A stretch of DNA of 64,000 bases from Thermodesulfobacteriota bacterium (GTDB taxonomy: Bacteria; Desulfobacterota; Binatia; Bin18): contig OZ219926.1 of the NCBI GenBank assembly GCA_964291405.2, positions 3,520,001 to 3,584,000 of the forward strand, in the 5' to 3' direction. Numbering within the stretch: position 1 is the first letter of the stretch; every line of letters starts with the position of its first letter. This document shows positions 6,867-16,603 of the stretch, one piece after another. Below the pieces are notes generated by a model. It was not told the origin of the DNA and did no database searches. It was given only the letters and a program-made list of their open reading frames with translations. The translations under genes were made by a program, and so were the position numbers.

Positions 6867-7030
6867 AAGGCCCTCCTTGCCTCCAAATTATTAGGAATGA
6901 ATATGCAGCCGTCTTATCTGAGAGCAATCAGGGCTGTCAAGGGATTCGATGCTTCTCAAGCCTGCCTCTTGCGTGTGAAGCGGCGAGTCTTTACAAGAAA
7001 ATGAACATTCACTCAGGAGAGGGGGGTCGA

Positions 7031-8296
7031 ATGCGAATAAGAAACCGGAGCGTTCTTTTCCTCACCGGCATACTGAGCCTGGTGGGGCTATTGTCGACAG
7101 GCGTGTATGCCCAGGACGGAGACCAGCAACTGCTGGACGGCTTTCTGCCGTACCGCAATGGCAGCCCGCAGATTGACGGCATAACACCTGGCATGACGCT
7201 GACCAAAGAGAATGTGCAGGTTGCCGAAAAGGTGTTGCCGCCGGAGATTGTCCGCGTGGTCCAAGCCGGAGATTTTGAGATTCCCGTCCAGGCGACAACG
7301 GACTTTCCTATCCTTGAGGCCTATATGCAGGCGTCGATCGAACACGCCGGCCAAACCCAACTCGACGCCAACGGAGAACTCCAGAACTACACGCTTGGCC
7401 AGCCTTTTCCCCTGATTGATCCGGCCGACCCGCAAGCCGGGCTCAAAGCCGCCTGGAATTACCGCATGCGCTATATGGGTGATACCATGACAACCCAAGG
7501 CGTCCTGCGTACGGTCAACAGTAGCGGCAATACCGAACGTGCGGTGGACACTCTCTATTCGCGCATGTACGGCATGTTCCGTCCGGACCCGGCGCGCAAT
7601 GTAGCGAAGTGGGAAAAGGAGGGGACCTGGTGGCGAGAACACTCGATTGTTATGAGCCCCCAGGACCTTGAAGGGGCCCAGAGTCTCACCTTTCATTACG
7701 CGGCGGACATGACCAACCAAAAGGGGTGGGCCTACGACCCGCAGAGTCGCCGCACGCGGAGCATTGTCGTGAATCATCAGTCGTCCTCATTCGAAGCGAA
7801 TTTTCTCATCGAAGATCATGCCGGTTTTCAGGGTTATCTCCGCAATTACACCTGGAAATATCTGGGCGAGCAGGTGATGCTGATGCCGGGCTTCGTCGGA
7901 GGAAACCCCCCGGAGTATGGGGGCAAAGGCGGCTGGTATCCCCAGTCGCCGTGGGAGTTGCGTCAGGTCGTCGTTCTGGAAGCCACCTCCAACGATGCCA
8001 GCCATCCGTACGGCATGCGGCGCTTTTATATTGACCGGCAGATTTATTCGGTCTTTTGCGTTGTCGTGTATGACCGTGAGGGCAATCATTGGCGGACCTT
8101 GTTTCACACGTTTGGCGACCCGGCCGACGATCCGGACAACGCCGAGGTAAAGGGTACGCATCTTCACTTGGGCAATGTGTGGATTGACTACAAAAGCAAT
8201 CGTGCCGCCCTGTGGACCGCCGACGAAATCCTGATCAACAAGCCGCTCAAGCCCAGAAAGTTCACGGTTAAAGAGATGGTCCGTTTGGGGAAGTGA
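7031..8296 (+). CDS. DUF1329 family periplasmic protein (LolA-like fold)
   Basis: Signal peptide, GQPFP...AGLKAAWN, WAYDPQSRRTR, YTWKYLGE, WELRQV, HPYG.R.FYID, YDREG..WR. Confidence 0.8.
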   Translation: MRIRNRSVLFLTGILSLVGLLSTGVYAQDGDQQLLDGFLPYRNGSPQIDGITPGMTLTKENVQVAEKVLPPEIVRVVQAGDFEIPVQATTDFPILEAYMQASIEHAGQTQLDANGELQNYTLGQPFPLIDPADPQAGLKAAWNYRMRYMGDTMTTQGVLRTVNSSGNTERAVDTLYSRMYGMFRPDPARNVAKWEKEGTWWREHSIVMSPQDLEGAQSLTFHYAADMTNQKGWAYDPQSRRTRSIVVNHQSSSFEANFLIEDHAGFQGYLRNYTWKYLGEQVMLMPGFVGGNPPEYGGKGGWYPQSPWELRQVVVLEATSNDASHPYGMRRFYIDRQIYSVFCVVVYDREGNHWRTLFHTFGDPADDPDNAEVKGTHLHLGNVWIDYKSNRAALWTADEILINKPLKPRKFTVKEMVRLGK

Positions 8297-8312
8297 AGCC
8301 TAGCTCCCAGCT

Positions 8313-10142
8313 ATGAGGCACAGCGTGCAGGGTCGACAAGCAGCGACGAATAAGCGCACTTCATCGTGCCTGAGACAGGCCGGGCTGTTGTGCGTTCGTA
8401 GCTTGGTCGTTGGTCTAGTGCTCTGGCCGGCCCTGCTGCACGCTCGCTTTCTGGACGAGTCCCAAACGCTGCGCTTTAACGGCCGGGTGTATAACCGGAC
8501 GGCCATGGCCGTGGAGAACGCGGGTGGAAATACTCGTCTCCAGACGCCGTACAATTCCTTCAATATGCTCCAGAACCGCTCCTTCATCCAAGCCGAATTG
8601 CGACATGATCTGGTGGACCTGGTTGAGGGCAGCTATGAGGGCACTCTTAGCGCGCTGGCGCCTCTGTTCAAGCCGCTTCAGTGGCTCCAGCTTGAAGACA
8701 TCAGTTATTTCATCACCTATCGGGGGGAGTACGACGGCGTCTGGGACTACGGACCCGACGTGTTTCGCGAGCGTTTTCCCCTGCACTCCAACTGTGGTCA
8801 GCCCAGCAAACAAAAGCGGACCAGTCCGCGTCAGTTTGCCGGCTGCTCGCGCGTCAACTCGCGCCGCAGCTTGCGTATGCGTCATCGGCTGTTTGAAGCC
8901 TATGTTGACCTGTCGTGGGAGTTTCTCTTTTTACGCATTGGACGCCAAAACCTGTCCTGGGGAGAGACCGACGCCTTTCGACTCCTGGATCAGATCAATC
9001 CGCTCGACGCCAGCTTTGGCGGCTTCCTCGTCTCCCTGGATGACCGACGCGTGCCCCTGGACATGGTGCGGGCCGTATACAGCTTTGAGGATGTCGGCCC
9101 CTTTTCCGAGCTCAACATTGAGGGCTACGGCGCCTTTGATAAGAATATCTCCAGCCCGGTGCCGGTTGGTTCCCCTTGGTCAACCCCGAACCCGCCGGGG
9201 ATGCGCAGTGTCGTCAAAAAGCCGGCCCAGAATTTCAAGGACACCCGGGGCGGCTTTCGCGTCACCGCCCGAATCGGTGAGCTGACGCTCTCTGCGGCGC
9301 ATTACTACACGTTTCTGGATGCGCCCGAGGTGCGCATTGTCACGCCCAGGAATCGTCCCCCGATCAGTCTGGCGGCGTTTGAGCAGGCGGTCAACGCCGG
9401 GCTGGCCTCTCAATTTATCGTTGATAACTTTCAGGCCAATGTGCTGTATCCGAAAATTGCGATTTCCGGCCTGACCGCCTCCTTCCCCGTGCCGAAGTGG
9501 TACGCGATCATTCGCAGCGAGGCGGCTGTTTTCTGGGACGAGCCGTTCTTTAAGAACTCCGGTGCTACCCACCTCCTCGGACCGGTCCTCTCCGACGGCC
9601 AGATCACACCCGGCTATCGTCAGGTCGGGATCGATCCCCTCACTGGCTCGCCGCTGCTGTCGTATGAGAACGATATTGCCCACTCACACGTTGTGCGCTG
9701 GGTGCTGGGCATCGATATCAATCGCTATATTCGTGCCCTCAATCCCCAGCAGTCTTTTATTATCAGCGGGCAGATGTTCGGTACGCATATCGTCGATTTC
9801 AACGACACCTCGCTGGCGTCAGCCGGGCCGTACGGTTTTGGTCATTTTGCGATTCCGGTGAGCGAGCCGAGCCGCCAGAACCGCTCCCTGGTCAATATCG
9901 ATCAACACCAGTTTGTGAATACGCTGAGTATCTCGACCTCCTTCCGCTCCGGGGTGATTAAACCCCAACTGGTCTTCTTCTACGACTGGCAGGGCTCCTG
10001 GCTCGTCCAGCCGGGGATTACGCTGACGCGGGACCCGTTTCGACTGACGCTCCAGTACAACTACCTCGATGGCCAGTACAATGGTATCGGCTTGCTGCGG
10101 GACCGGGACAATCTGATTACGCAGCTTGAGGTGGTGTTCTAG
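8313..10142 (+). CDS. DUF1302 family outer-membrane beta-barrel protein
   Basis: LFEAYVD...LRIGRQNLSWGETD.FRLLDQINPLD and C-terminal LRDRDN...VVF. Paired with DUF1329. Confidence 0.8.
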   Translation: MRHSVQGRQAATNKRTSSCLRQAGLLCVRSLVVGLVLWPALLHARFLDESQTLRFNGRVYNRTAMAVENAGGNTRLQTPYNSFNMLQNRSFIQAELRHDLVDLVEGSYEGTLSALAPLFKPLQWLQLEDISYFITYRGEYDGVWDYGPDVFRERFPLHSNCGQPSKQKRTSPRQFAGCSRVNSRRSLRMRHRLFEAYVDLSWEFLFLRIGRQNLSWGETDAFRLLDQINPLDASFGGFLVSLDDRRVPLDMVRAVYSFEDVGPFSELNIEGYGAFDKNISSPVPVGSPWSTPNPPGMRSVVKKPAQNFKDTRGGFRVTARIGELTLSAAHYYTFLDAPEVRIVTPRNRPPISLAAFEQAVNAGLASQFIVDNFQANVLYPKIAISGLTASFPVPKWYAIIRSEAAVFWDEPFFKNSGATHLLGPVLSDGQITPGYRQVGIDPLTGSPLLSYENDIAHSHVVRWVLGIDINRYIRALNPQQSFIISGQMFGTHIVDFNDTSLASAGPYGFGHFAIPVSEPSRQNRSLVNIDQHQFVNTLSISTSFRSGVIKPQLVFFYDWQGSWLVQPGITLTRDPFRLTLQYNYLDGQYNGIGLLRDRDNLITQLEVVF

Positions 10143-11484
10143 TCCGGAGCGCGGCGATGAGATCGTCTTCACTCAGCGCTTGCTGCTCCCCGGTTGCCAG
10201 GTTCTTCAAGGTATAGCGCTGGCGTTCAACCTCGTCAGGTCCGAGAATGAGCGCATGGGGAATCTGCTGGGCGTCTGCGGCGGAGAGCTGGCGCTTGAGT
10301 CTGCTCTGTTCCGGATAGACCTCGACCGTAATGCCTGCCTGTCGCAGGCGCGAGGCCAGTCCGACCGCCGGTGGCAGCGGGGCATCGGGCAGGATGCAGA
10401 CCATCACCTGGGCGGTCAATTGCAGGGCCGGAAACATCTGCCGCTCTTCCATTAAGAGCAGGATACGTTCCAAACCGAGGGAAAAGCCGACCGCCGGAAC
10501 CTGCTTGTTGCTGAACATGCCAACCAGGTTGTCGTAGCGTCCGCCGCCGCCTAAGGAGCCGCTGAAGTCGGTTGAGACAACCTCAAAGATAGGACCGGTA
10601 TAATAGCTCAGACCCCGTGCCAGCGCCGGGGCCAGGCGGATATGCGAACCTGCTGGGGCCTCCATGGTTAAGGCCACAAGCGTTTCAAGATCCTTGAGCG
10701 CCTGCTGTGCCTCGGGCTGCAATAACTGTCCGCGCAAGGCTTCTAATACGGCGTGGTTGCTCATCTTCGGGGTGCTCGTTGTCATGGCGAGCAGACGTTG
10801 GGCCGAATCTGGAGCAATGCCGCGTTGCGTGAGTTCTGCCTGCACGCCGTCAACACCGATTTTATCCAGCTTATCAATGGCGATCAGAGCGGAACCCTCA
10901 AGATTGGGGTCAATACCGGCCGCCCCGATCATACTGCGTAGAACCACCCGGTGGTTGAGCGCAATGGAGAAGTTGGAAAAGCCGAGCTCAAGCAGCGCGC
11001 CGCTGACCGCGTTCATCACCTCCGCTTCGGCCAGCAGCGACGTGGTGCCGGTCAGATCAACATCACACTGATAAAACTCACGAAAGCGGCCTTTCGCCGG
11101 CCGGTCCGCCCGCCAGACAGGCTGAATCTGGTAGCGCTTGAATACCCTGGGAAGGCTGTTGCCGTACTGGGCCACGACGCGAGCCAGCGGAACGGTGAGA
11201 TCGTAACGCAGCCCCAACTCGGCCAGGTCTCCGGCTTCGGGGGTCGGTTTTTCCAGGGCTCGCGTGAGTTTGTCGCCCCGGTGGAGGAGACGGAAGAGGA
11301 GTTGGTCGCCCTCCTCGCCATACTTGCCTAACAGCGTGGTCAGATTCTCGATGGCCGGCGTTTCAAGGGGCAGAAAACCGTAGCGCTGAAAGACGTTCTC
11401 AATCTTCGACACAACGTAGCGTCGTTTTGCCACGGTCTCAGGTAAGTAATCTCGCGTGCCGCTCGGCGGCTTGGTACTCGGCAT
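10117..11484 (-). CDS. hisS: Histidine--tRNA ligase
   Basis: MPSTKPPSGTRDYLP, LRYDLTVPLAR, WRADRPAKGRFREFYQCD, LARGLSYYTG, GGGRYDNL, GFSLGLERI. True start at 11484. Confidence 0.97.
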   Translation of the reverse strand: MPSTKPPSGTRDYLPETVAKRRYVVSKIENVFQRYGFLPLETPAIENLTTLLGKYGEEGDQLLFRLLHRGDKLTRALEKPTPEAGDLAELGLRYDLTVPLARVVAQYGNSLPRVFKRYQIQPVWRADRPAKGRFREFYQCDVDLTGTTSLLAEAEVMNAVSGALLELGFSNFSIALNHRVVLRSMIGAAGIDPNLEGSALIAIDKLDKIGVDGVQAELTQRGIAPDSAQRLLAMTTSTPKMSNHAVLEALRGQLLQPEAQQALKDLETLVALTMEAPAGSHIRLAPALARGLSYYTGPIFEVVSTDFSGSLGGGGRYDNLVGMFSNKQVPAVGFSLGLERILLLMEERQMFPALQLTAQVMVCILPDAPLPPAVGLASRLRQAGITVEVYPEQSRLKRQLSAADAQQIPHALILGPDEVERQRYTLKNLATGEQQALSEDDLIAALRTRTPPQAA

Positions 11485-11578
11485 ATGCGAACCTCGAACA
11501 GGGTGATACCGGAGTGTATCCGTTCCGAAGAGAACTGTCAGGGCCGTAGGTCGAGTGAGCGGAGTATCCTCCGACTCC

Positions 11579-13516
11579 TTATCCCTGGGCTGCTGCCTGG
11601 AGGGCTGCACGGCCCGTATCGGACAGGGAGAGACGCCGCTCCCAGATGCCGTGACTGCGCACCTGGCCAAGTCGTTCCAAGCGACTGACGACCACGCCGA
11701 GCGTCGAGGCGTTCGCCTCAATCGCTCGGCCCAAGGTCCGCAACGTCTGCGGACCGCTTTCAATCTGTCTGAGGATTTGGAGCTCAATGGTGGGGACCGA
11801 AGAGCGGGGCGGTCCAACCGCTCCGTGCTCTTCACTTCTCTCCCAGTGTTGCACTCCCTGGGGAGTGAGCCCTAGGGTAAAAAAGTCCGGGCCTGATTGC
11901 GCCTGCCGCCGGACCAGACCCGCGGCTATCAGTTCATCGATTAAGCGGTTCCCGCGCGCGGTGTCTATGCCGAGAAAATCAGTCAACTCGACCATCTGTC
12001 CATAGCCGTTGTGTAACAGGTCCAGGAGTCGCATATGCTCGGCAGTGAGGACGGAGGGCTCCTGGCCGGCCTCGGAGCGACTGTCCTGCTGGATTGCCGG
12101 TCGTGAGGTTGCCAGCGAGATCAGAACGATCAAGGGCAGGGTGGTAAGGGTTCCGATAAGAACCGTATGCGTTGACCACGCGGTTACGCCAGTCAGTTGT
12201 AACCCCTCGTAGACCAGCATGACGACCATCCCGATGAGCGTCCCCCAAAATGCTCCGGTTGCGTTTATTCGCGGCCAGCGATGCCCGAGCAAAAAGATCA
12301 GTGCTGCCGGGCCCAACATCGCGCAGCTAATGGCCAGCAAAAAATAGGGTCCGCCGGGGTAAAAACTGAGCAGCCAAATGCCGCCCCCGGTGACGACGGT
12401 GAGAATCCGGCTGATACGCAAGACCTGCTCCCGTGTTGCCTCCGGATGCAGAAAGCGTTGATACAGGTCACGCACCAGGGTCGAGGTAATCCCCAGGTGA
12501 GCGTTGCTGGTGGTTGAGATAGTCGCCGCCAAGGCCGCTACCAAGCCGAAGAGCGCCACCCCTGAGGGGAGGTCGCGCATCAGCATGCCATAGGCGCTCA
12601 TGGGGTTGGCCTCACCCAGAAAGTCTTGACGATACACGCTCCCCGCGTACAGTCCGAGCAGGCCCAACGCCCCGTGGACAACCAGGACGACCACGACTCC
12701 GCCAATCAGATATTGCCAGCGGGCGACAAACTCGGTGCGGGCGGCCGCGGCGCGCAGCCAGTAGTAGTTACCGCCCCACTGAATGAACATGCCGACCACC
12801 AGGGAGACGGTGATAATGCTGGGATAGCTCAGGCGTAACCACGGAAACGTCCCTGCCGTTCCCTGGGTCAACGGAGCCGGGGAAACGAACTGGGCTTGAA
12901 TCATATCCCAGCCACCAAATGTCCACGCACAGTAGCCGACCAGCGCCGGCAGGAGGATAAAGCCCAGAATGACCTGTACGACATCGGTCAGGGTCAGCGC
13001 CCACAGGCCACCGAGCAGGAGAAACATGACGTGACCACCGAGAATAAGCGTCACCATCAGCCACAGCGGAGCCTCAAGAAAGCCGGTCATAATCAGCGCC
13101 ATAGCAATGACATTCATGGCGACCAGGCCGGTCACACCGAGGACGGTGGCAATGCTGACGACCAGGCGGGTGCGTGCATCAAAGCGCATCTCCAGCCACT
13201 CCGGTAGCGTGTAGGCCCCGGAGCGACGGACATACGGACAGGCCAGCAGACCGTATATCCAATAGCCGATAACCGCCGGCAGACTAATACCCCACACCCA
13301 GCCAAAAAAGCCGTACTGAATGGTCAGGCCCGGAATAATGCTGGTCACGCTGCCGGCAAACGCGATCCCACAGATCCCGGCAATGCCGGGGAGCAGACTG
13401 ACCTGGCGGCCGGCCAGCAAATAATCGGCATCGGTCGAAACCCAGCGTTTGGCATACCAGCCCAGAGACCAGAGCAGAGCGATCAAGATGAGAACGGACA
13501 GGACGGATATCAGCAC
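11579..13516 (-). CDS. Sodium:solute symporter (SLC5/SSS) with two C-terminal winged-helix (MarR-like) domains
   Basis: DYLLAGR, YTLPEWLEMRF, GGLWALTLTDVVQ and AATIST..AHL..TSTLVRDLY SSS motifs, followed by a soluble tail with two wHTH-like units. GTG start at 13516 after AAGGAGG. Confidence 0.88.
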   Translation of the reverse strand: MLISVLSVLILIALLWSLGWYAKRWVSTDADYLLAGRQVSLLPGIAGICGIAFAGSVTSIIPGLTIQYGFFGWVWGISLPAVIGYWIYGLLACPYVRRSGAYTLPEWLEMRFDARTRLVVSIATVLGVTGLVAMNVIAMALIMTGFLEAPLWLMVTLILGGHVMFLLLGGLWALTLTDVVQVILGFILLPALVGYCAWTFGGWDMIQAQFVSPAPLTQGTAGTFPWLRLSYPSIITVSLVVGMFIQWGGNYYWLRAAAARTEFVARWQYLIGGVVVVLVVHGALGLLGLYAGSVYRQDFLGEANPMSAYGMLMRDLPSGVALFGLVAALAATISTTSNAHLGITSTLVRDLYQRFLHPEATREQVLRISRILTVVTGGGIWLLSFYPGGPYFLLAISCAMLGPAALIFLLGHRWPRINATGAFWGTLIGMVVMLVYEGLQLTGVTAWSTHTVLIGTLTTLPLIVLISLATSRPAIQQDSRSEAGQEPSVLTAEHMRLLDLLHNGYGQMVELTDFLGIDTARGNRLIDELIAAGLVRRQAQSGPDFFTLGLTPQGVQHWERSEEHGAVGPPRSSVPTIELQILRQIESGPQTLRTLGRAIEANASTLGVVVSRLERLGQVRSHGIWERRLSLSDTGRAALQAAAQG

Positions 13517-13681
13517 GGACTCCCTCCTTTGCCTGTCCTGATAGCTGAAGAATGCCACTGGAAACAAGGCAGGCGGATTCCCCGTGTCGGCCGTTCAGCC
13601 CTGAAGATTCTGCGAATTGGGTTGAATATTTGCCCCTGACCCAATAATGAGACTCTAGCGCGAAAAAGAAGGGAGAATACC

Positions 13682-14727
13682 ATGGCTCAGTATGTCTACG
13701 CTGGAGCATCGCAGTTTTCCACCAACGGACAGACCGCCCCAAGCAGTGGTTTGTGTCGTCAAAGAGTCGGAGAAACGGAGTGGCAGATTTTGAGCCAGGG
13801 CCTCCCGGAGCGGGCCGAGATTCGGGCCATTCTTGTCCATCCTGATAATCCGCATCTATTATACGTCGGTACCCAGCACGGGCCGTACCGCAGCACAGAC
13901 GGCGGGGCGCATTGGGAGGAGCTGGATTTTCCGGATACCGGGATGGCGGTCTGGTCGCTGCTGTTTCGCCCGAATGATCCTCAGGTCGTATATTGCGGTA
14001 CCGCACCGGCGGCCATCTATCGGAGCGAAAACGGTGGCGACACCTGGAAACGCCTGACCTTTGCCCAGCCGTCCGGCATGGTTGAAATGGGCTTTCCGTG
14101 TCGCATTATCGGCCTGGCGGCCGATCCGAATGATCCGGATGCGGTGTACGCCGGCCTGGAGGTCGGCGGAATCATCCGCAGTAAAGATGGCGGCGACACC
14201 TGGGAGGACTGTAGTCAAGCGCTAATTCAGTTTGCCGAGCAGGATTATTTGAAGAGTCGTATTCTGAGCAACACCGATGCCGAGGGTATGATGGACACCC
14301 ACGCTCTGGTGCTGAGTGCCGCGCAGCCGGGTAGCGTCTTTCTCGCCACGCGCATGGGTCTGTTCCAAAGCCCGGATCAGGGTCAGACCTGGGCGGATAT
14401 GGAAATCTGGCGTTCTTCGCCGTTGGCGTACGCGCGTGATATCCAGGTCGCTCCTGGTGACCCCAATACACTCTACGCCGCGCTGAGTCCGGGAGCACTC
14501 ACCCTGAACGGCTCCGTCTATCGCAGCCCGGACCTGGGTCAGACCTGGCAGCGCTTTGACCATGATATCTCCCCCCGGAGCACCATGATGACCGTCGCCC
14601 TCAGCCGCCAGGCCCCGCAACTCGTATACTGTGGCACGCGGGAGGGCCAGGTGACGGCGGTACGGCCTGGAGCGAGTCCGCGCTGCCGGACGGATGTCAG
14701 AACGTCTATACCCTGGCGTGCGGATAA
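13682..14727 (+). pseudogene. BNR/Asp-box beta-propeller protein, frameshifted near the C-terminus
   Basis: Repeated S.DGG..W boxes. After GTREGQV (~14652) the last repeat DGGTAWSESALPDGCQNVYTLACG* continues in another frame to TAA 14727. Confidence 0.8.
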
Positions 14728-14979: not shown

Positions 14980-16137
14980 ATGACCGCAAACGGAAAGTTT
15001 CCCTATAGCGGAACGGTTGATGCCGACGGACACATTCTTGAGCCACCTGATACCTGGGAGAAGTATATTGATCCAAGATATAAGGACCGGGCAATCCGTC
15101 TGCATACCAATGAAGATGGGTTGGAGGTCCTGGAACTGGATGGACGACCTGCGAAGTATTCCCAGCCGGGACAATTGGCCCAGTTCGGAGCGATGGGAAA
15201 AAAATCGGAAGAAGAAACCGCGCCCCATCCGGACCGTACCTATGTGGGCGAGGCGCCCTTTGGCTCGATGTATCCCAAAGAGCGGCTGGCCCGTATGGAT
15301 CAAGAGGGCTTGGAAAAGGCCATTATCTATCCGAGTCTTGGCCTCTTATGGGAAACCGAAGAGGTTGAAGGCCTTGATCTCCAGGCGGCCTACGCCGAGG
15401 CGTATAATCGCTGGGTGGTTGATTTCTGCTCTGACTCCGATGGCCGGCTGATCCCGATTGCCCATATCTCAATGGGAGATGGGAATGTGGCGGCCCAGGA
15501 ACTGGAACGGGCAGTACGCGCCGGAGCCAAAGGCGCGTTCTTCGTGCCGTTCACGCCGACCAATAAATCTCACGCCCACCCGGACTACGACCCGTTCTGG
15601 GCCAAGGCCCAGGAGTTGGACGTCCCGGTCGGTATTCACCCGAGCGGTGAACCGCCCTCCAAGCGGGTGCACCAACGCTTCAAGGATATGCAGAAATGGG
15701 CGTTGTGGCACTACAATGTGCACGGCGCGCAGGGGCCGCTCCAGGCCTTTACGGCGATGTTCCAGTACGGCCTGTTTGAGCGTTTCCCCAAGATCAAAAT
15801 TGTAGTGCTGGAATCGGGCGCGGGCTGGGCCGGCTATCTGCTCAACCGCATGGATGCGGTGTTCGACAGCCCCTTGGGCGACACCGTCAAGCTCAAGGAA
15901 AAACCCAGCTATTACTTTCATCGCAACTGCTGGATTTCCGGCGACCCGGACGAAAAAGCCTTTGGTCATGTGGTGGACTTCGTAGGCGCAGACAAATTCT
16001 TCTGGGCCTCTGACTTTCCGCACCCCGACCATCCGGACAACTATATGGACGAGTTGGTCGAACTGGTTGATCCCATGTCTGAGGCAACACGGCAGAAGGT
16101 CATCGGCCAGAACGCGGCGCAGGTGTACGGGCTGTAG
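14980..16137 (+). CDS. Amidohydrolase_2 family protein
   Basis: VDADGHILEPPDTW, RLARMDQEG, AYNRW, LESGAGW, WASDFPHPD. Confidence 0.92.
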   Translation: MTANGKFPYSGTVDADGHILEPPDTWEKYIDPRYKDRAIRLHTNEDGLEVLELDGRPAKYSQPGQLAQFGAMGKKSEEETAPHPDRTYVGEAPFGSMYPKERLARMDQEGLEKAIIYPSLGLLWETEEVEGLDLQAAYAEAYNRWVVDFCSDSDGRLIPIAHISMGDGNVAAQELERAVRAGAKGAFFVPFTPTNKSHAHPDYDPFWAKAQELDVPVGIHPSGEPPSKRVHQRFKDMQKWALWHYNVHGAQGPLQAFTAMFQYGLFERFPKIKIVVLESGAGWAGYLLNRMDAVFDSPLGDTVKLKEKPSYYFHRNCWISGDPDEKAFGHVVDFVGADKFFWASDFPHPDHPDNYMDELVELVDPMSEATRQKVIGQNAAQVYGL

Positions 16138-16147
16138 AGGGAAGGCG

Positions 16148-16603
16148 ATGAAACTCGAATATCTGTGCGATTACACTGCCACCTTCATTACCCCGATAAG
16201 CGTCGGCAAGGGGCCGCTCGGCGAGCGTATCGTGGCCGACCTGACCGGCGGGCACTTCGAGGGCCCGCGGATGAAGGGCAAGGTCCGGGCCAGTGGGGCC
16301 GACTGGGCTCTGGTCGGCCCGGACGGCAACCTGCGTCTCGACGTGCGTGCGGTCTTTGAGAGCGACGATGGGGCGGCGATCTATGTCACCTACCGGGCGC
16401 GTATGGAAGCCACCGAGGGGATTCGGAAAGCGCTTGCGGGCGGCGGCTCGACCAATTTTGGGGATAATTATTTTATCTCACAGATTCAGTTTGAGACCGG
16501 CGACGAGCGGTATGCCTGGCTCAATAACCTGATGGCCGTGGGCGAGGGCAAACTCAAGCCCAATGAGGTGACCTATCGGGTGTATGCCGTCGTACCGGAT
16601 TAA
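16148..16603 (+). CDS. DUF3237 family protein
   Basis: GPLGER...GGHFEGPRMKG...GADW...LDVR...DDGAAIY...FETGDERYAWLN. Confidence 0.88.
   Translation: MKLEYLCDYTATFITPISVGKGPLGERIVADLTGGHFEGPRMKGKVRASGADWALVGPDGNLRLDVRAVFESDDGAAIYVTYRARMEATEGIRKALAGGGSTNFGDNYFISQIQFETGDERYAWLNNLMAVGEGKLKPNEVTYRVYAVVPD

Follow-up and report, generated by a model that had tools for sequence, protein, structure and literature searches.

A sodium:solute symporter with a tandem MarR-like winged-helix tail, a candidate cytoplasmic cap

The window, by which we mean the whole stretch of 64,000 nucleotides analysed here, encodes a sodium:solute symporter (SSS) whose C-terminal tail consists of two winged-helix (wH) units. 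Judging from our models, it is on balance probable that this tail is a repurposed wH cap that serves the transporter as a regulatory partner, and FeoC with FeoB offers a comparable case. The Na+-coupled transporter would carry a dedicated C-terminal module of duplicated and then specialised MarR/PadR-derived wH units, which would no longer be mainly a DNA binder and would act as a cytoplasmic cap. The gene and its surroundings comprise the following features.

11579..13516, minus strand: gene for the SSS transporter with tandem winged-helix tail (645 aa and a stop codon, starting at GTG)
13523..13529, minus strand: Shine-Dalgarno sequence AAGGAGG, 6 nt 5' of the GTG start, read directly
12107..13516, minus strand: membrane domain, residues 1-470, 13-TM SSS/SLC5 LeuT-fold, N-out/C-in (Pfam, hydropathy, AlphaFold2, Foldseek, PDB profiles)
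12044..12106, minus strand: linker, residues 471-491 (about 20 aa), probably flexible (pLDDT block means 56 and 64)
11828..12043, minus strand: winged-helix unit 1, residues 492-563, acidic (Pfam MarR_2/MarR, AlphaFold2, conservation, charge)
11789..11827, minus strand: inter-unit linker, residues 564-576, variable in length and sequence (pLDDT 68-69)
11582..11788, minus strand: winged-helix unit 2, residues 577-645, with a basic wing (VIA-align, conservation)
13517..13681: divergent intergenic region between the symporter gene and a BNR/Sortilin-like gene, with conserved blocks and an imperfect dyad
10117..11484, minus strand: hisS, downstream after a 94-nt gap (Pfam tRNA-synt_His on an ortholog)

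The open frame extends over 11579..13567 on the minus strand, which gives a 662-aa reading, and the true start is the GTG at 13516, in agreement with the sequence-only reading. The position of this GTG is common to 20/20 clade A orthologous loci, where an SD-like purine run also precedes it, and the resulting length of 645 aa agrees with homologs of 641-648 aa. Alignments with homologs of 631-671 aa extend over 93% or more of the window protein. The sequence-only reading had described an SSS domain followed in one frame by a linker and two units of about 60 aa. We confirmed this order, and both peptides that it quoted from the units are present in the translation. The linker at 471-491 is poorly conserved in our alignment A1. 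Contigs from RNA libraries, which cannot show transcript ends, cover 12005-12261 and 13317-13501 of the gene and are silent on its other parts.

In the 662-aa reading, Pfam SSF (PF00474) matched residues 49-446 with an E of 3e-28 and 99.3 bits against a cut-off of 22.8. The match spans the whole 406-position model, and the window protein belongs by sequence to the SSS family (TC 2.A.21). TIGR00813 reached 109.6 bits, below its cut-off of 184, and the protein therefore falls into no named equivalog. Hydropathy and the positive-inside pattern give about 13 TM segments in the membrane domain. Its Foldseek matches were SGLT2, SiaT (TMt 0.79), CHT1, SMCT1 and NIS, and PDB profile matches also support an SSS/SLC5 membrane domain. 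The model shows a LeuT-type fold with 13 predicted TM helices and a cytoplasmic C-terminus. Because of the 13 TM segments and the positive-inside pattern, the tail is predicted to be cytoplasmic. In a profile alignment, the invariant S334-T335 region aligned with the Ser-Ser of vSGLT, which we take to be the Na2-site hydroxyl residues in core TM8.

On the tail alone, Pfam gave MarR_2 (39.6 bits, cut-off 27) and MarR (32.3 bits, cut-off 24.6), in two stretches each, and unit 2 also gave weaker HVO_A0261_N and HTH_27 matches. AlphaFold2 folded the tail into two helix-helix-helix-hairpin-helix units (pLDDT 89.3, pTM 0.80), and a PDB profile search with the tail found MarR proteins at an E of about 1e-4. 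The closest fold match of unit 2 in VIA-align was DNA-bound E. coli MarR 5h3r (Z 13.1, rmsd 1.7 A over 72 residues), and nearly all other listed fold matches of the tail are DNA-binding regulators. The MarR-type pattern that had been read from the letters in both units is thus borne out by the Pfam families, the AlphaFold2 fold and the Z of 13.1 to MarR. A protein atlas search with the tail returned generic wHTH clusters alone, at 0.76-0.78, which is below the meaningful level. The two units account for the entire tail, and Pfam gave no STAC, PAS, HisKA, HATPase or kinase match at E<=1 in the window protein. Units 1 and 2 align with each other in hhalign at 96.4% (E 1e-9) and stem from an internal duplication. 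The same reading had taken the tandem as a stand-in for a MarR dimer, and this did not hold: unit 1 is acidic (pI 5.35) and unit 2 is basic (pI 11.5), so they are not equivalent halves. The units of about 70 aa also lack the flanking dimerisation helices of a MarR-type homodimer, and both lie in one chain.

The placement of the tail relative to the membrane domain is predicted. The full-length AlphaFold2 model reached a pTM of 0.90 and a pLDDT of 90.8, where by our own arithmetic a pTM of about 0.73 would be expected were the roughly 175 residues of tail and linker unplaced. In an independent prediction of the membrane domain (1-472) and the tail (488-645) as a complex, in a type of model where halves of one chain may dock more readily, the ipSAE was 0.77 (runs 0.77, 0.75 and 0.78) and the best of three controls gave 0.00. 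The complex model contains about 80 confident contacts with a partner pLDDT of at least 80 and a contact agreement between runs of at least 96%. In the tool's calibration this mark is reached by 58/80 solved complexes and 2/110 mismatched pairs, counts that apply roughly, since the complex prediction was run on our own alignment. No solved structure that pairs an SSS with such a tail came up in the fold searches, and the pass is therefore not recall of a known complex.

The interface residues were taken from the complex model, while the docking in the full-length AlphaFold2 model rests on pTM and pLDDT. The predicted interface comprises residues 507-509, 512-513, 518-520, 523, 540-543 and 545-547 of unit 1 and residues 592-593, 602-604, 607 and 623-627 of unit 2. 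On the side of the transporter, the R97-R98-x-G100 loop is predicted to touch M508/V509/F546, and the wing of unit 2 (G623-R627) to touch the loops at 260-262 and 353-362. In this model, which represents one state, the canonical DNA-binding faces of both units are buried on Arg-rich cytoplasmic loops. The mean conservation of the interface was 0.66 (27 positions) versus 0.43 for the 127 other tail positions, and none of 10,000 random position subsets reached 0.66. The interface contains M508, D513, D518, G542, G623 and R627, six of the 15 tail positions that are conserved at 85% or more. DNA binding by that face should likewise leave it conserved.

For the cap we propose that the elements with which MarR proteins bind DNA, namely helix 2, the beginning of the recognition helix and the tips of the wings, would pack on conserved Arg-rich transporter loops. 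The contacted elements would be the pre-TM1a segment (residues 24-43), the post-TM3 loop (94-117) and the loops 260-262, 353-362 and 412-415. The cap would in this way bridge elements that move against each other in LeuT-fold transporters, and it could latch or sense the inner gate. We infer a gating or regulatory consequence: uptake may be tuned, for example by auto-inhibition or by feedback from an intracellular ligand, or the state of the transporter may be reported to another partner.

The same docking can be read differently, since it masks exactly the DNA-binding faces, as a switch would need. The tail would then alternate between a docked state and a released, operator-bound one, and transport or substrate occupancy would directly set the transcription of the adjacent catabolic genes, as in a one-component system of the transceptor type. 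We regard this switchable membrane-tethered transcription factor, which refines the idea of the sequence-only reading, as a tentative alternative. A flux-sensing form of it, in which the latched and masked tail is freed as the inner gate opens in turnover and binds operator DNA near the membrane (transertion), seems to us rather doubtful. If it were true, transport activity would directly set the transcription of the catabolic cluster without a second messenger or kinase, and free-standing versions of the tail would act alike by reversible sequestration on their cognate transporter. The short linker, of about 20 aa, counts against the switch. Multi-TM transmembrane regulators do exist, as the main text of a survey reports (PMC10269533).

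The residues of the two units bear on both readings. In unit 1, helix 2 and the beginning of helix 3 carry conserved acidic residues. D513 is 100% conserved, D518 (the recognition-helix N-cap) is acidic in 88%, and positions 518-523 are basic in 0-2%. Further features of unit 1 are a G-Y-x-T-M-x-E-x-x-D motif, the wing-base Arg R537 and the wing-turn Gly G542, and the pI of the tail is below 7 in 60/79 loci. Since unit 1 is acidic, D513 and D518 are conserved acidic positions and 518-523 is barely basic, the tail chemistry appears to fit a protein partner better than DNA. An acidic recognition face that is conserved across phyla is unfavourable for DNA binding, and the same residues are conserved in lineages whose operators should differ. 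Against the cap, and in favour of the switch, sequence and structure alike mark both units as true wHTH domains of the MarR/PadR type. As far as is known, almost every prokaryotic domain of this type binds DNA. Two sequence features point the same way. The basic wing of unit 2 (G623, W625, R627) carries a near-invariant Arg, R627, at 94-97%, and the residues next to it are basic. In helix 3 of unit 1, Asn is kept at 68-76%, and the next residue is Lys/Arg in 62% of fused tails.

The fusion is widely conserved. In tblastn the tail was in frame with the transporter in 79/80 related loci, and in the 80th (L078) it was found on inspection, so homologs keep the SSS-wH fusion in 80/80 loci, as had been asked of them, which is far beyond chance. 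These loci come from Candidatus Binatia, cultured Bacillales, Clostridia and one Spirochaete; the cultured Bacillales members include Brevibacillus panacihumi, Virgibacillus litoralis, Mesobacillus maritimus, Bhargavaea species and others. Tail positions stay invariant even at 22-29% tail identity. It is highly improbable that the fusion is an artefact or in decay, with a transporter gene and a neighbouring MarR-like gene brought together by the recent loss of a stop codon, by misassembly or in a pseudogene. Split forms do exist, and one of the 80 loci, the paralog locus L084, has a frameshift. The conservation data, with the fusion retained in several phyla, already contradict this explanation. 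The window's own genome also has a second gene, a paralog, of the same architecture, one RNA-library contig crosses the transporter-tail junction with 1 mismatch, and the same stretch is present in many independent sequencing runs.

Within a phylum sample we found the module in 2/201 genomes, both from the window's genus, a figure that describes the genomes searched and does not mean absence. A tail profile run against 1.84 billion representatives gave 201 matches at E<=1e-3 and 112 at E<=1e-10. The strong matches that we inspected were fusions of about 630-670 aa, N-truncated fragments with SSF plus tail, or free-standing proteins, and for this reason the wH module seems specific to this SSS transporter subfamily. 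SSF was found in 5/17 proteins of intermediate length that were scanned, while most others gave wH families alone or nothing. Complete free-standing tail proteins of 156-173 aa made up 30/36 proteins fetched. This is an old family that spans domains of life, with members in Binatia, Bacillota, an archaeal-type lineage and a Spirochaete. In the tail tree the fused forms are intermixed with the free ones, and because its deep nodes have a support of only 0.63-0.86 we make no claim on how many fusions or fissions took place.

The module also occurs in some lineages as a small protein of its own, whose gene overlaps the transporter gene at its end. At the archaeal-type locus L095, an SSS of 558 aa lacks the tail; it shares 29% identity with the window protein (E 7e-47), and its gene overlaps a 171-aa tandem-wH gene by 8 nt. 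This pair is adjoined by a PF04199 cyclase-family hydrolase, an FAA hydrolase and an MBL gene. Besides the cluster of L095 itself, we found six more tail-less transporters of 552-566 aa that are 37-41% identical to the L095 SSS. The gene context of the free-standing form was taken from this one lineage, out of 30 inspected free-standing proteins. The fused gene in Bacillota is flanked by the same families, with a cyclase in 21/24 loci, BKACE in 10, FAH in 8 and MBL in 4. Separate-gene homologs had been named as a sign of chance stop loss. They do occur in some lineages, and there they are a conserved split form and not evidence of such a loss. Fused and split occurrence is the classic signature of two physically cooperating parts, and we count the split form with its common gene context in favour of the cap. 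The free-standing versions also resemble ordinary small local regulators, as the switch would have it. The neighbouring genes suggest that the substrate is an organic compound catabolised by the cyclase-family amidohydrolase, FAH, BKACE and MBL enzymes; a literature search on the set of BKACE, cyclase, symporter and FAH found nothing relevant. From the cyclase-family hydrolase, FAH and BKACE neighbours, lactams, formamides and beta-diketo compounds are candidate substrates.

A separate regulator lies beside the operon at 19/24 Bacillota/Spirochaete loci (TrmB-like at 11, a sigma-54/PAS activator at 8), which we count for the cap and against a tail that sets transcription. In the window we recognised no other transcription factor over about 7 kb around the gene, and in 6-7 kb of the split-form loci no regulator was seen. 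Because no other transcription factor is near, the tail could be the sole regulator of the cluster at these loci, which favours the switch and weighs against the cap. The neighbouring regulators also bring in an adaptor or scaffold, in which the docked wH pair would recruit another protein through helix 1 and the C-terminal helices. Candidate partners would be the first catabolic enzyme (channelling) or the TrmB-like or sigma-54 regulator (membrane sequestration, as with Mlc/PtsG). Such an adaptor is consistent with the tight cross-domain co-occurrence with the same enzyme set, with conserved tail positions outside the predicted interface (G504, Y505, E510, R537), and with the frequent role of wH domains in protein contacts, as tandem-wH ScpB is among the fold matches. 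We nevertheless consider it unlikely, as no third partner was identified, the TrmB-like neighbour is not specifically related to the tail (hhalign probability 0.5%) and the cyclase/BKACE/FAH/MBL set is absent beside the window's own copy. A further candidate relative of the tail, an ORF of about 166 aa directly upstream of the paralogs, proved unrelated (hhalign 0.2%). Neither Pfam nor NCBIfam assigns it to a family, and naive ORF picking may have produced it spuriously.

The position of the gene 94 nt upstream of hisS on the same strand had been given correctly. The expectation that homologs keep this neighbourhood failed outside clade A, where 19/20 loci have it and 0/58 other loci do, and hisS is therefore an incidental neighbour. 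It has its own promoter-like site at 11541..11513 in a promoter scan. On the other side of the gene, the dyad of the divergent promoter region (arms 13605-13622 and 13639-13656, centre AATATT) fits the switch and counts against the cap, although the conservation of this intergenic region may simply reflect the close kinship of the genomes. In a search for a shared operator, the dyad TTGGGT-N16-ACCCAA upstream of the gene was found again at 8 clade A loci, the window's included, all of them close relatives and not independent, and its 5 clade B matches sit in a tandem-repeat element and not at promoters. Given this kinship and the tandem-repeat location, the dyad lends no support to a shared operator, and it did not recur as an operator elsewhere.

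The proposal of a membrane-tethered transcription factor thus stands in its first part, as the fusion is real, the fold MarR-like, the predicted location cytoplasmic and the occurrence cross-phylum. Against its DNA-binding part stand the predicted burial of the DNA-binding faces, the acidic and conserved recognition face of unit 1 and the separate regulators at most Bacillota loci. The cap remains our preferred reading. It carries a warning for annotation: a confident MarR/wHTH match need not mean a transcription factor, and counts of membrane-tethered regulators made from domain architectures may include such cases. Since members occur in cultured Bacillales, both the cap and the dock-or-DNA switch are directly testable.

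Secondary transporters with built-in cytoplasmic control modules, such as CBS or RCK domains, are known. STAC-kinase tails are likewise built-in cytoplasmic modules of transporters (PMC7918813, main text). CbrA, CrbS and RpuS, SLC5/STAC sensor kinases also termed "transceptors", resemble the window protein as SSS/SLC5 proteins with C-terminal cytoplasmic signalling modules. They differ in that they carry STAC, PAS and histidine-kinase domains that signal through a response regulator, whereas the window protein has two wH units only. The main text of the review lists kinase, GAF and PP2C fusions and contains neither "DNA-binding" nor "MarR" (PMC7918813).

At the domain-family level, the window protein resembles ToxR, CadC, TcpP and BcrR in joining a wHTH-type domain to membrane segments within a single polypeptide. 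The classic ToxR/CadC-type proteins have an N-terminal OmpR- or XRE-type DNA-binding domain, mostly one TM helix and proven DNA binding, whereas the window protein has a C-terminal MarR-like tandem on a 13-TM transporter with its DNA faces predicted to be buried. A survey of transmembrane transcription regulators reports up to 22 TM regions, and its main text, to which our check was confined, mentions neither "symporter" nor "MarR" (PMC10269533). With the MarR/PadR regulators the tail shares the wHTH fold. It differs from MarR by the absent dimerisation helices and by its asymmetric units, one acidic and one basic. SarS, a single chain with two wH units, is also among the fold matches of the tail, and the two-domain arrangement of the tail matches no solved tandem-wH protein well (TMq 0.31-0.36).

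The sequence-only reading knew of no characterised SLC5-wHTH fusion, and this agrees with our search: no description of the architecture, and no MarR-derived tandem wH module as a dedicated SSS partner, was found in the literature searched. The nearest comparison is FeoC. In the passages of 10.1101/2022.02.26.482101 that concern it, the gene for FeoC, a small winged-helix protein, directly follows feoB. Its fold led to the proposal, made without experimental verification, that FeoC regulates transcription, and FeoC uses helix 3 and the wing to bind the cytoplasmic part of FeoB; Feo accessory proteins are also found in fused variants. FeoC differs in having a single wH unit, often with an Fe-S cluster, that binds the soluble G-domain of FeoB, which does not have a LeuT fold. 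In the window protein two duplicated MarR-like units are predicted to sit on loops of the SSS membrane domain, and there is no sequence relationship to FeoC. The likeness, as far as those passages describe FeoC, is that of a winged-helix protein tied to a transporter, with a fold that suggests a regulator and, in our case, a wH face predicted to lie on the transporter. Taken with the docking models, our findings point to an undescribed way of controlling uptake.

The gene at 11579..13516 on the minus strand encodes a protein of 645 aa, a sodium:solute symporter (SSS/SLC5) that continues into a C-terminal tail of two winged-helix (wH) units. The sequence-only reading had proposed this fusion, and its reading frame (open over 11579..13567) and its GTG start at 13516 proved correct. 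An AAGGAGG Shine-Dalgarno (SD) sequence lies 6 nt upstream, the same start is found in 20/20 loci of clade A, the orthologs of this gene, and close homologs of 641-648 aa are consistent with it. With Pfam we found a full-length SSF domain (99.3 bits, cut-off 22.8), while the tail matched MarR_2 (39.6 bits, cut-off 27) and MarR (32.3 bits, cut-off 24.6), each over two stretches, although it lacks the dimerisation helices that MarR family members have. The whole protein reached the equivalog level of no NCBIfam family. Both tail peptides quoted earlier were present in the translation and the 94-nt gap to hisS (10117..11484) was right, so domains, start, peptides and gap all agree with the original observation.

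By hydropathy and the positive-inside pattern the protein crosses the membrane about 13 times (13 TM segments), from an outer N-terminus to an inner C-terminus, which puts the tail in the cytoplasm. Structural matches of the membrane domain were SGLT2, SiaT (TMt 0.79), CHT1, SMCT1 and NIS. Since the Na2-site hydroxyls, whose role we presume from general knowledge, appear conserved in the alignment, this domain probably works as a transporter and is not just a sensor. The AlphaFold2 model of the whole protein (pLDDT 90.8, pTM 0.90, 59-sequence alignment) divided the rest as follows.

Segments behind the membrane domain in the full-length AlphaFold2 model
residues 471-491, low-confidence linker
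residues 492-563, wH unit 1
residues 564-576, second linker
residues 577-645, wH unit 2

Modelled alone (pLDDT 89.3, pTM 0.80), the tail folded as winged helices, with two helix-helix-helix-hairpin-helix units. Unit 2 superposed on E. coli MarR in its complex with DNA (5h3r; Z 13.1, rmsd 1.7 Å over 72 residues), as well as on BldR, PadR and similar regulators. The two-domain arrangement compared poorly with the tandem-wH proteins ScpB, SelB, SarS and AlkX/YcaQ (TMq 0.31-0.36, Foldseek). The two units stem from an old internal duplication; they are homologous to each other (hhalign 96.4%, E 1e-9) at 16% identity.

We found 145 homologs at E<=1e-3, and among the 120 matches listed almost all had 631-671 aa and query coverage of 92-98%, at identities down to 32-35%; two shorter proteins (448 and 501 aa) were the exceptions. 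Scanning genomes yielded 117 relatives, and the analysis went on with the best 80 loci. They came from Candidatus Binatia MAGs, Clostridia, Dethiobacter, one Spirochaetales MAG and cultured Bacillales (Brevibacillus, Virgibacillus, Bhargavaea, Pseudogracilibacillus, Mesobacillus, Geomicrobium, Lederbergia and others). The tail was in frame with the transporter in 79/80 loci (tblastn) and the 80th (L078) has it too, so all 80 loci keep the tail. One Binatia MAG has its paralog (L084:6950-8960) split between frame 1 (query residues 12-267) and frame 3 (265-653), with the frameshift inside the membrane domain; this is either a pseudogene or an assembly error. The window's own genome holds a paralog of the same architecture at 62% identity (G000:C3:2971286-2973202, locus L002), and invariant tail positions persist at 21-29% tail identity. 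An RNA-library contig crosses the junction of membrane domain and tail (12005-12261, 1 mismatch), which is weak evidence for expression and an intact junction. The fusion is real, conserved and uncharacterised, and we find it hardly credible that it is an artefact.

The distribution is patchy, since an even sample of the window's phylum had the tail module in 2/201 genomes, both of the window's genus. Sequence near-identical to 11400-13800 was present in at least 20 public runs from 13 studies. Several runs with at least half of the sampled words were labelled sponge metagenome, and one with a 0.42 share was labelled coral metagenome.

The tail is also found on its own. Its profile, searched against 1.84 billion representative proteins, gave 201 matches at E<=1e-3, which include fusions, truncated fusions and many complete free-standing proteins of 156-173 aa. 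Such proteins, which begin with Met and match the whole module, made up 30 of the 36 fetched, and one comes from a Bathyarchaeota MAG. Genomic context for free-standing genes was obtained from one lineage (loci L095 and L096). At L095, of a Bathyarchaeota-type lineage, a 558-aa SSS gene overlaps a 171-aa tandem-wH gene by 8 nt; this transporter belongs to the same subfamily as ours (29% identity, E 7e-47), and six more tail-less transporters of its type (552-566 aa) were found besides the query's own cluster. Neighbours of the split form were a PF04199 cyclase-family hydrolase, an FAA hydrolase and an MBL-fold protein, with a cupin, an enoyl-CoA hydratase and an acyl-CoA ligase in addition at L096. 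The sequence-only reading had held that a tail encoded separately would point to chance stop loss. Given the free-standing proteins and the L095 pair, the tail is indeed a separate gene in some lineages, but as a conserved two-gene version and not by chance. Fused and free forms are interleaved in the tail tree, where the deep nodes are weak (support 0.63-0.86).

hisS comes next after the gene in 19/20 clade A loci and in 0/58 others; the 94-nt gap contains a promoter-like site, and the adjacency is incidental. Clade A neighbours are a divergent BNR/Sortilin-like gene, Amidohydro_2, DUF3237 and luciferase-like monooxygenases, and those of the paralogs (clade B) are HpaB, a MetE-like protein, an aminotransferase and a dienelactone hydrolase. 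The 24 Bacillota/Spirochaete loci have catabolic neighbours (cyclase-family hydrolase 21, BKACE 10, FAH 8, MBL 4, thiolase 4), and in 19 of them a separate regulator adjoins the gene (TrmB-like 11, sigma-54/PAS activator 8). Around the window's gene, no other transcription factor was found over a distance of about 7 kb.

Some further features of the neighbourhood were observed. The 62%-identity paralog also sits with a luciferase-like monooxygenase in genomes related to the window's. Just past hisS, a DUF1329 (LolA-like)/DUF1302 pair (7001-10142), possibly for outer-membrane uptake, is kept in the clade A neighbourhood. Amidohydro_2 (14980..16137) and DUF3237 (ORF from 16067), together 14980-16603, overlap by about 70 nt as called, and DUF3237 probably starts further downstream; the pair is kept in 19/20 clade A loci. 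The divergent BNR-like gene (13682 onward) had RNA-library contigs in 3/3 metatranscriptome runs examined.

The two wH units are asymmetric, with a pI of 5.35 for unit 1 and 11.5 for unit 2, and tails are acidic overall in 60/79 loci. Over 69 sequences, fused and free, acidic residues are conserved on helix 2 and around helix 3 of unit 1 (D34 100%, E31 86% acidic, D39 64%, E48 84%), and the wing of unit 2 is basic (R148 94%). By our calculation, a full-length model that left the ~175 residues of tail and linker unplaced would have a pTM of roughly 0.73; the observed 0.90 lies well above this, which suggests that AlphaFold2 places the tail confidently against the membrane domain. A separate, independent complex prediction of membrane domain (1-472) and tail (488-645) gave an ipSAE of 0.77 (runs 0.77, 0.75, 0.78), and the best of three controls scored 0.00. 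In calibration, 58/80 solved complexes and 2/110 mismatched pairs came up to this mark, figures that apply roughly here because our own alignment was used. The model has about 80 confident contacts, with contact agreement of 96% or more between runs, and a partner pLDDT of 80 or higher. Structure searches found no solved structure resembling an SSS with such a tail pair. The model supports binding of tail and transporter and does not show it.

Predicted interface in the complex model
residues 507-509, 512-513, 518-520, 523, 540-543, 545-547, 592-593, 602-604, 607, 623-627, tail
residues 24-43, transporter, segment into core TM1a
residues 94-117, transporter, Arg-rich loop after TM3
residues 260-262, 353-362, 412-415, transporter, loops

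In both units of the tail this comprises helix 2, the beginning of helix 3 and the wing, the faces that touch DNA in MarR-type proteins. Conservation is higher at these interface positions than elsewhere in the tail (0.66 vs 0.43; reached by 0/10,000 random subsets); they include 6 of the 15 tail positions conserved to at least 85%, and are nearly without basic residues except at 626-627. Conservation of this face across phyla, where operators should differ, the acidic unit 1 and the complementarity to the Arg-rich loops fit a protein interface better than DNA. We therefore lean towards the tail being a repurposed cap, a regulatory partner of the transporter. Such a cap would bridge TM1a, the first intracellular loop and the scaffold-helix loops and, from general knowledge of LeuT-fold transport cycles, might latch or sense the inner gate. 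It could thereby tune uptake, e.g. by auto-inhibition or intracellular-ligand feedback. An adaptor role, with the tail holding a third partner, seems to us quite improbable.

The sequence-only reading had proposed a membrane-tethered MarR, and in this simple form it is partly supported. MarR/PadR-type winged helices are indeed fused to the transporter, while the predicted docking and the acidic conserved face of unit 1 speak against the tethered function. A switch version of it, with a tail that lets go of the transporter and can then bind DNA, is unlikely in our view. Several points speak against the cap. Its docking is predicted and not observed, and the tail domains are true MarR/PadR relatives, which to our knowledge are DNA binders in nearly all cases; in unit 2 a wing Arg is kept along with basic residues next to it, in unit 1 helix 3 has kept Asn followed by Lys/Arg, and some loci are without any other regulator. 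Between the divergent promoters there is also an imperfect 18-nt inverted repeat (arms 13605-13622 and 13639-13656, 72% complementary, 16 nt apart, centred on AATATT), which is conserved among close orthologs. As a shared operator it did not generalise, since its clade B matches fall in a tandem-repeat element.

Clade B tandem-repeat element
L036:8937-8964
L037:9003-9030
L073:8988-9015
L039:10085-10112
L050:10200-10227

The C-terminal extensions of clade B paralogs are variable and consist of short tandem repeats (with units such as GTTGAGTCT/GTTGGGTCT, which encode peptides of the 'SVESLG' type), and in other genomes the same element also lies about 1.1 kb downstream, past the next gene. It resembles a small repeat of mobile or REP-like type that can lengthen the reading frame. 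Eight clade A orthologs have some 70 nt more between the start codon and the conserved block of the promoter, and in 6 of the eight this extra segment begins with an SD-like AGGAGG and then ATG-TGA, a start-stop mini-ORF. The window and its nearest relatives are without it, and the same SD serves the gene directly.

Clade A orthologs with the extra segment, ~70-90 nt upstream of the gene start
L010, L012, L013, L014, L016, L017, L021, L028

Our literature search found no description of an SSS-wHTH or SSS-MarR fusion. The main text of an SSS review (PMC7918813) never uses 'DNA-binding' or 'MarR', and that of a regulator survey (PMC10269533), whose supplementary lists might include such proteins, never uses 'symporter' or 'MarR'. 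The transmembrane transcription regulators of that survey share a domain-level architecture with our protein, whereas their defining DNA binding from the membrane is disfavoured here by the model. The SLC5-STAC kinases CbrA, CrbS and RpuS likewise join an SSS domain to a signalling tail (PMC7918813); their tail modules differ, and Pfam found no such domain in our protein. The closest functional analogue is FeoC (10.1101/2022.02.26.482101), a small winged-helix protein whose gene lies behind feoB. It was suspected, without verification, to be a regulator, and it binds FeoB via helix 3 and the wing. The window protein belongs with a known kind, the transporter with a cytoplasmic control module, of which the tandem-wH version is new.
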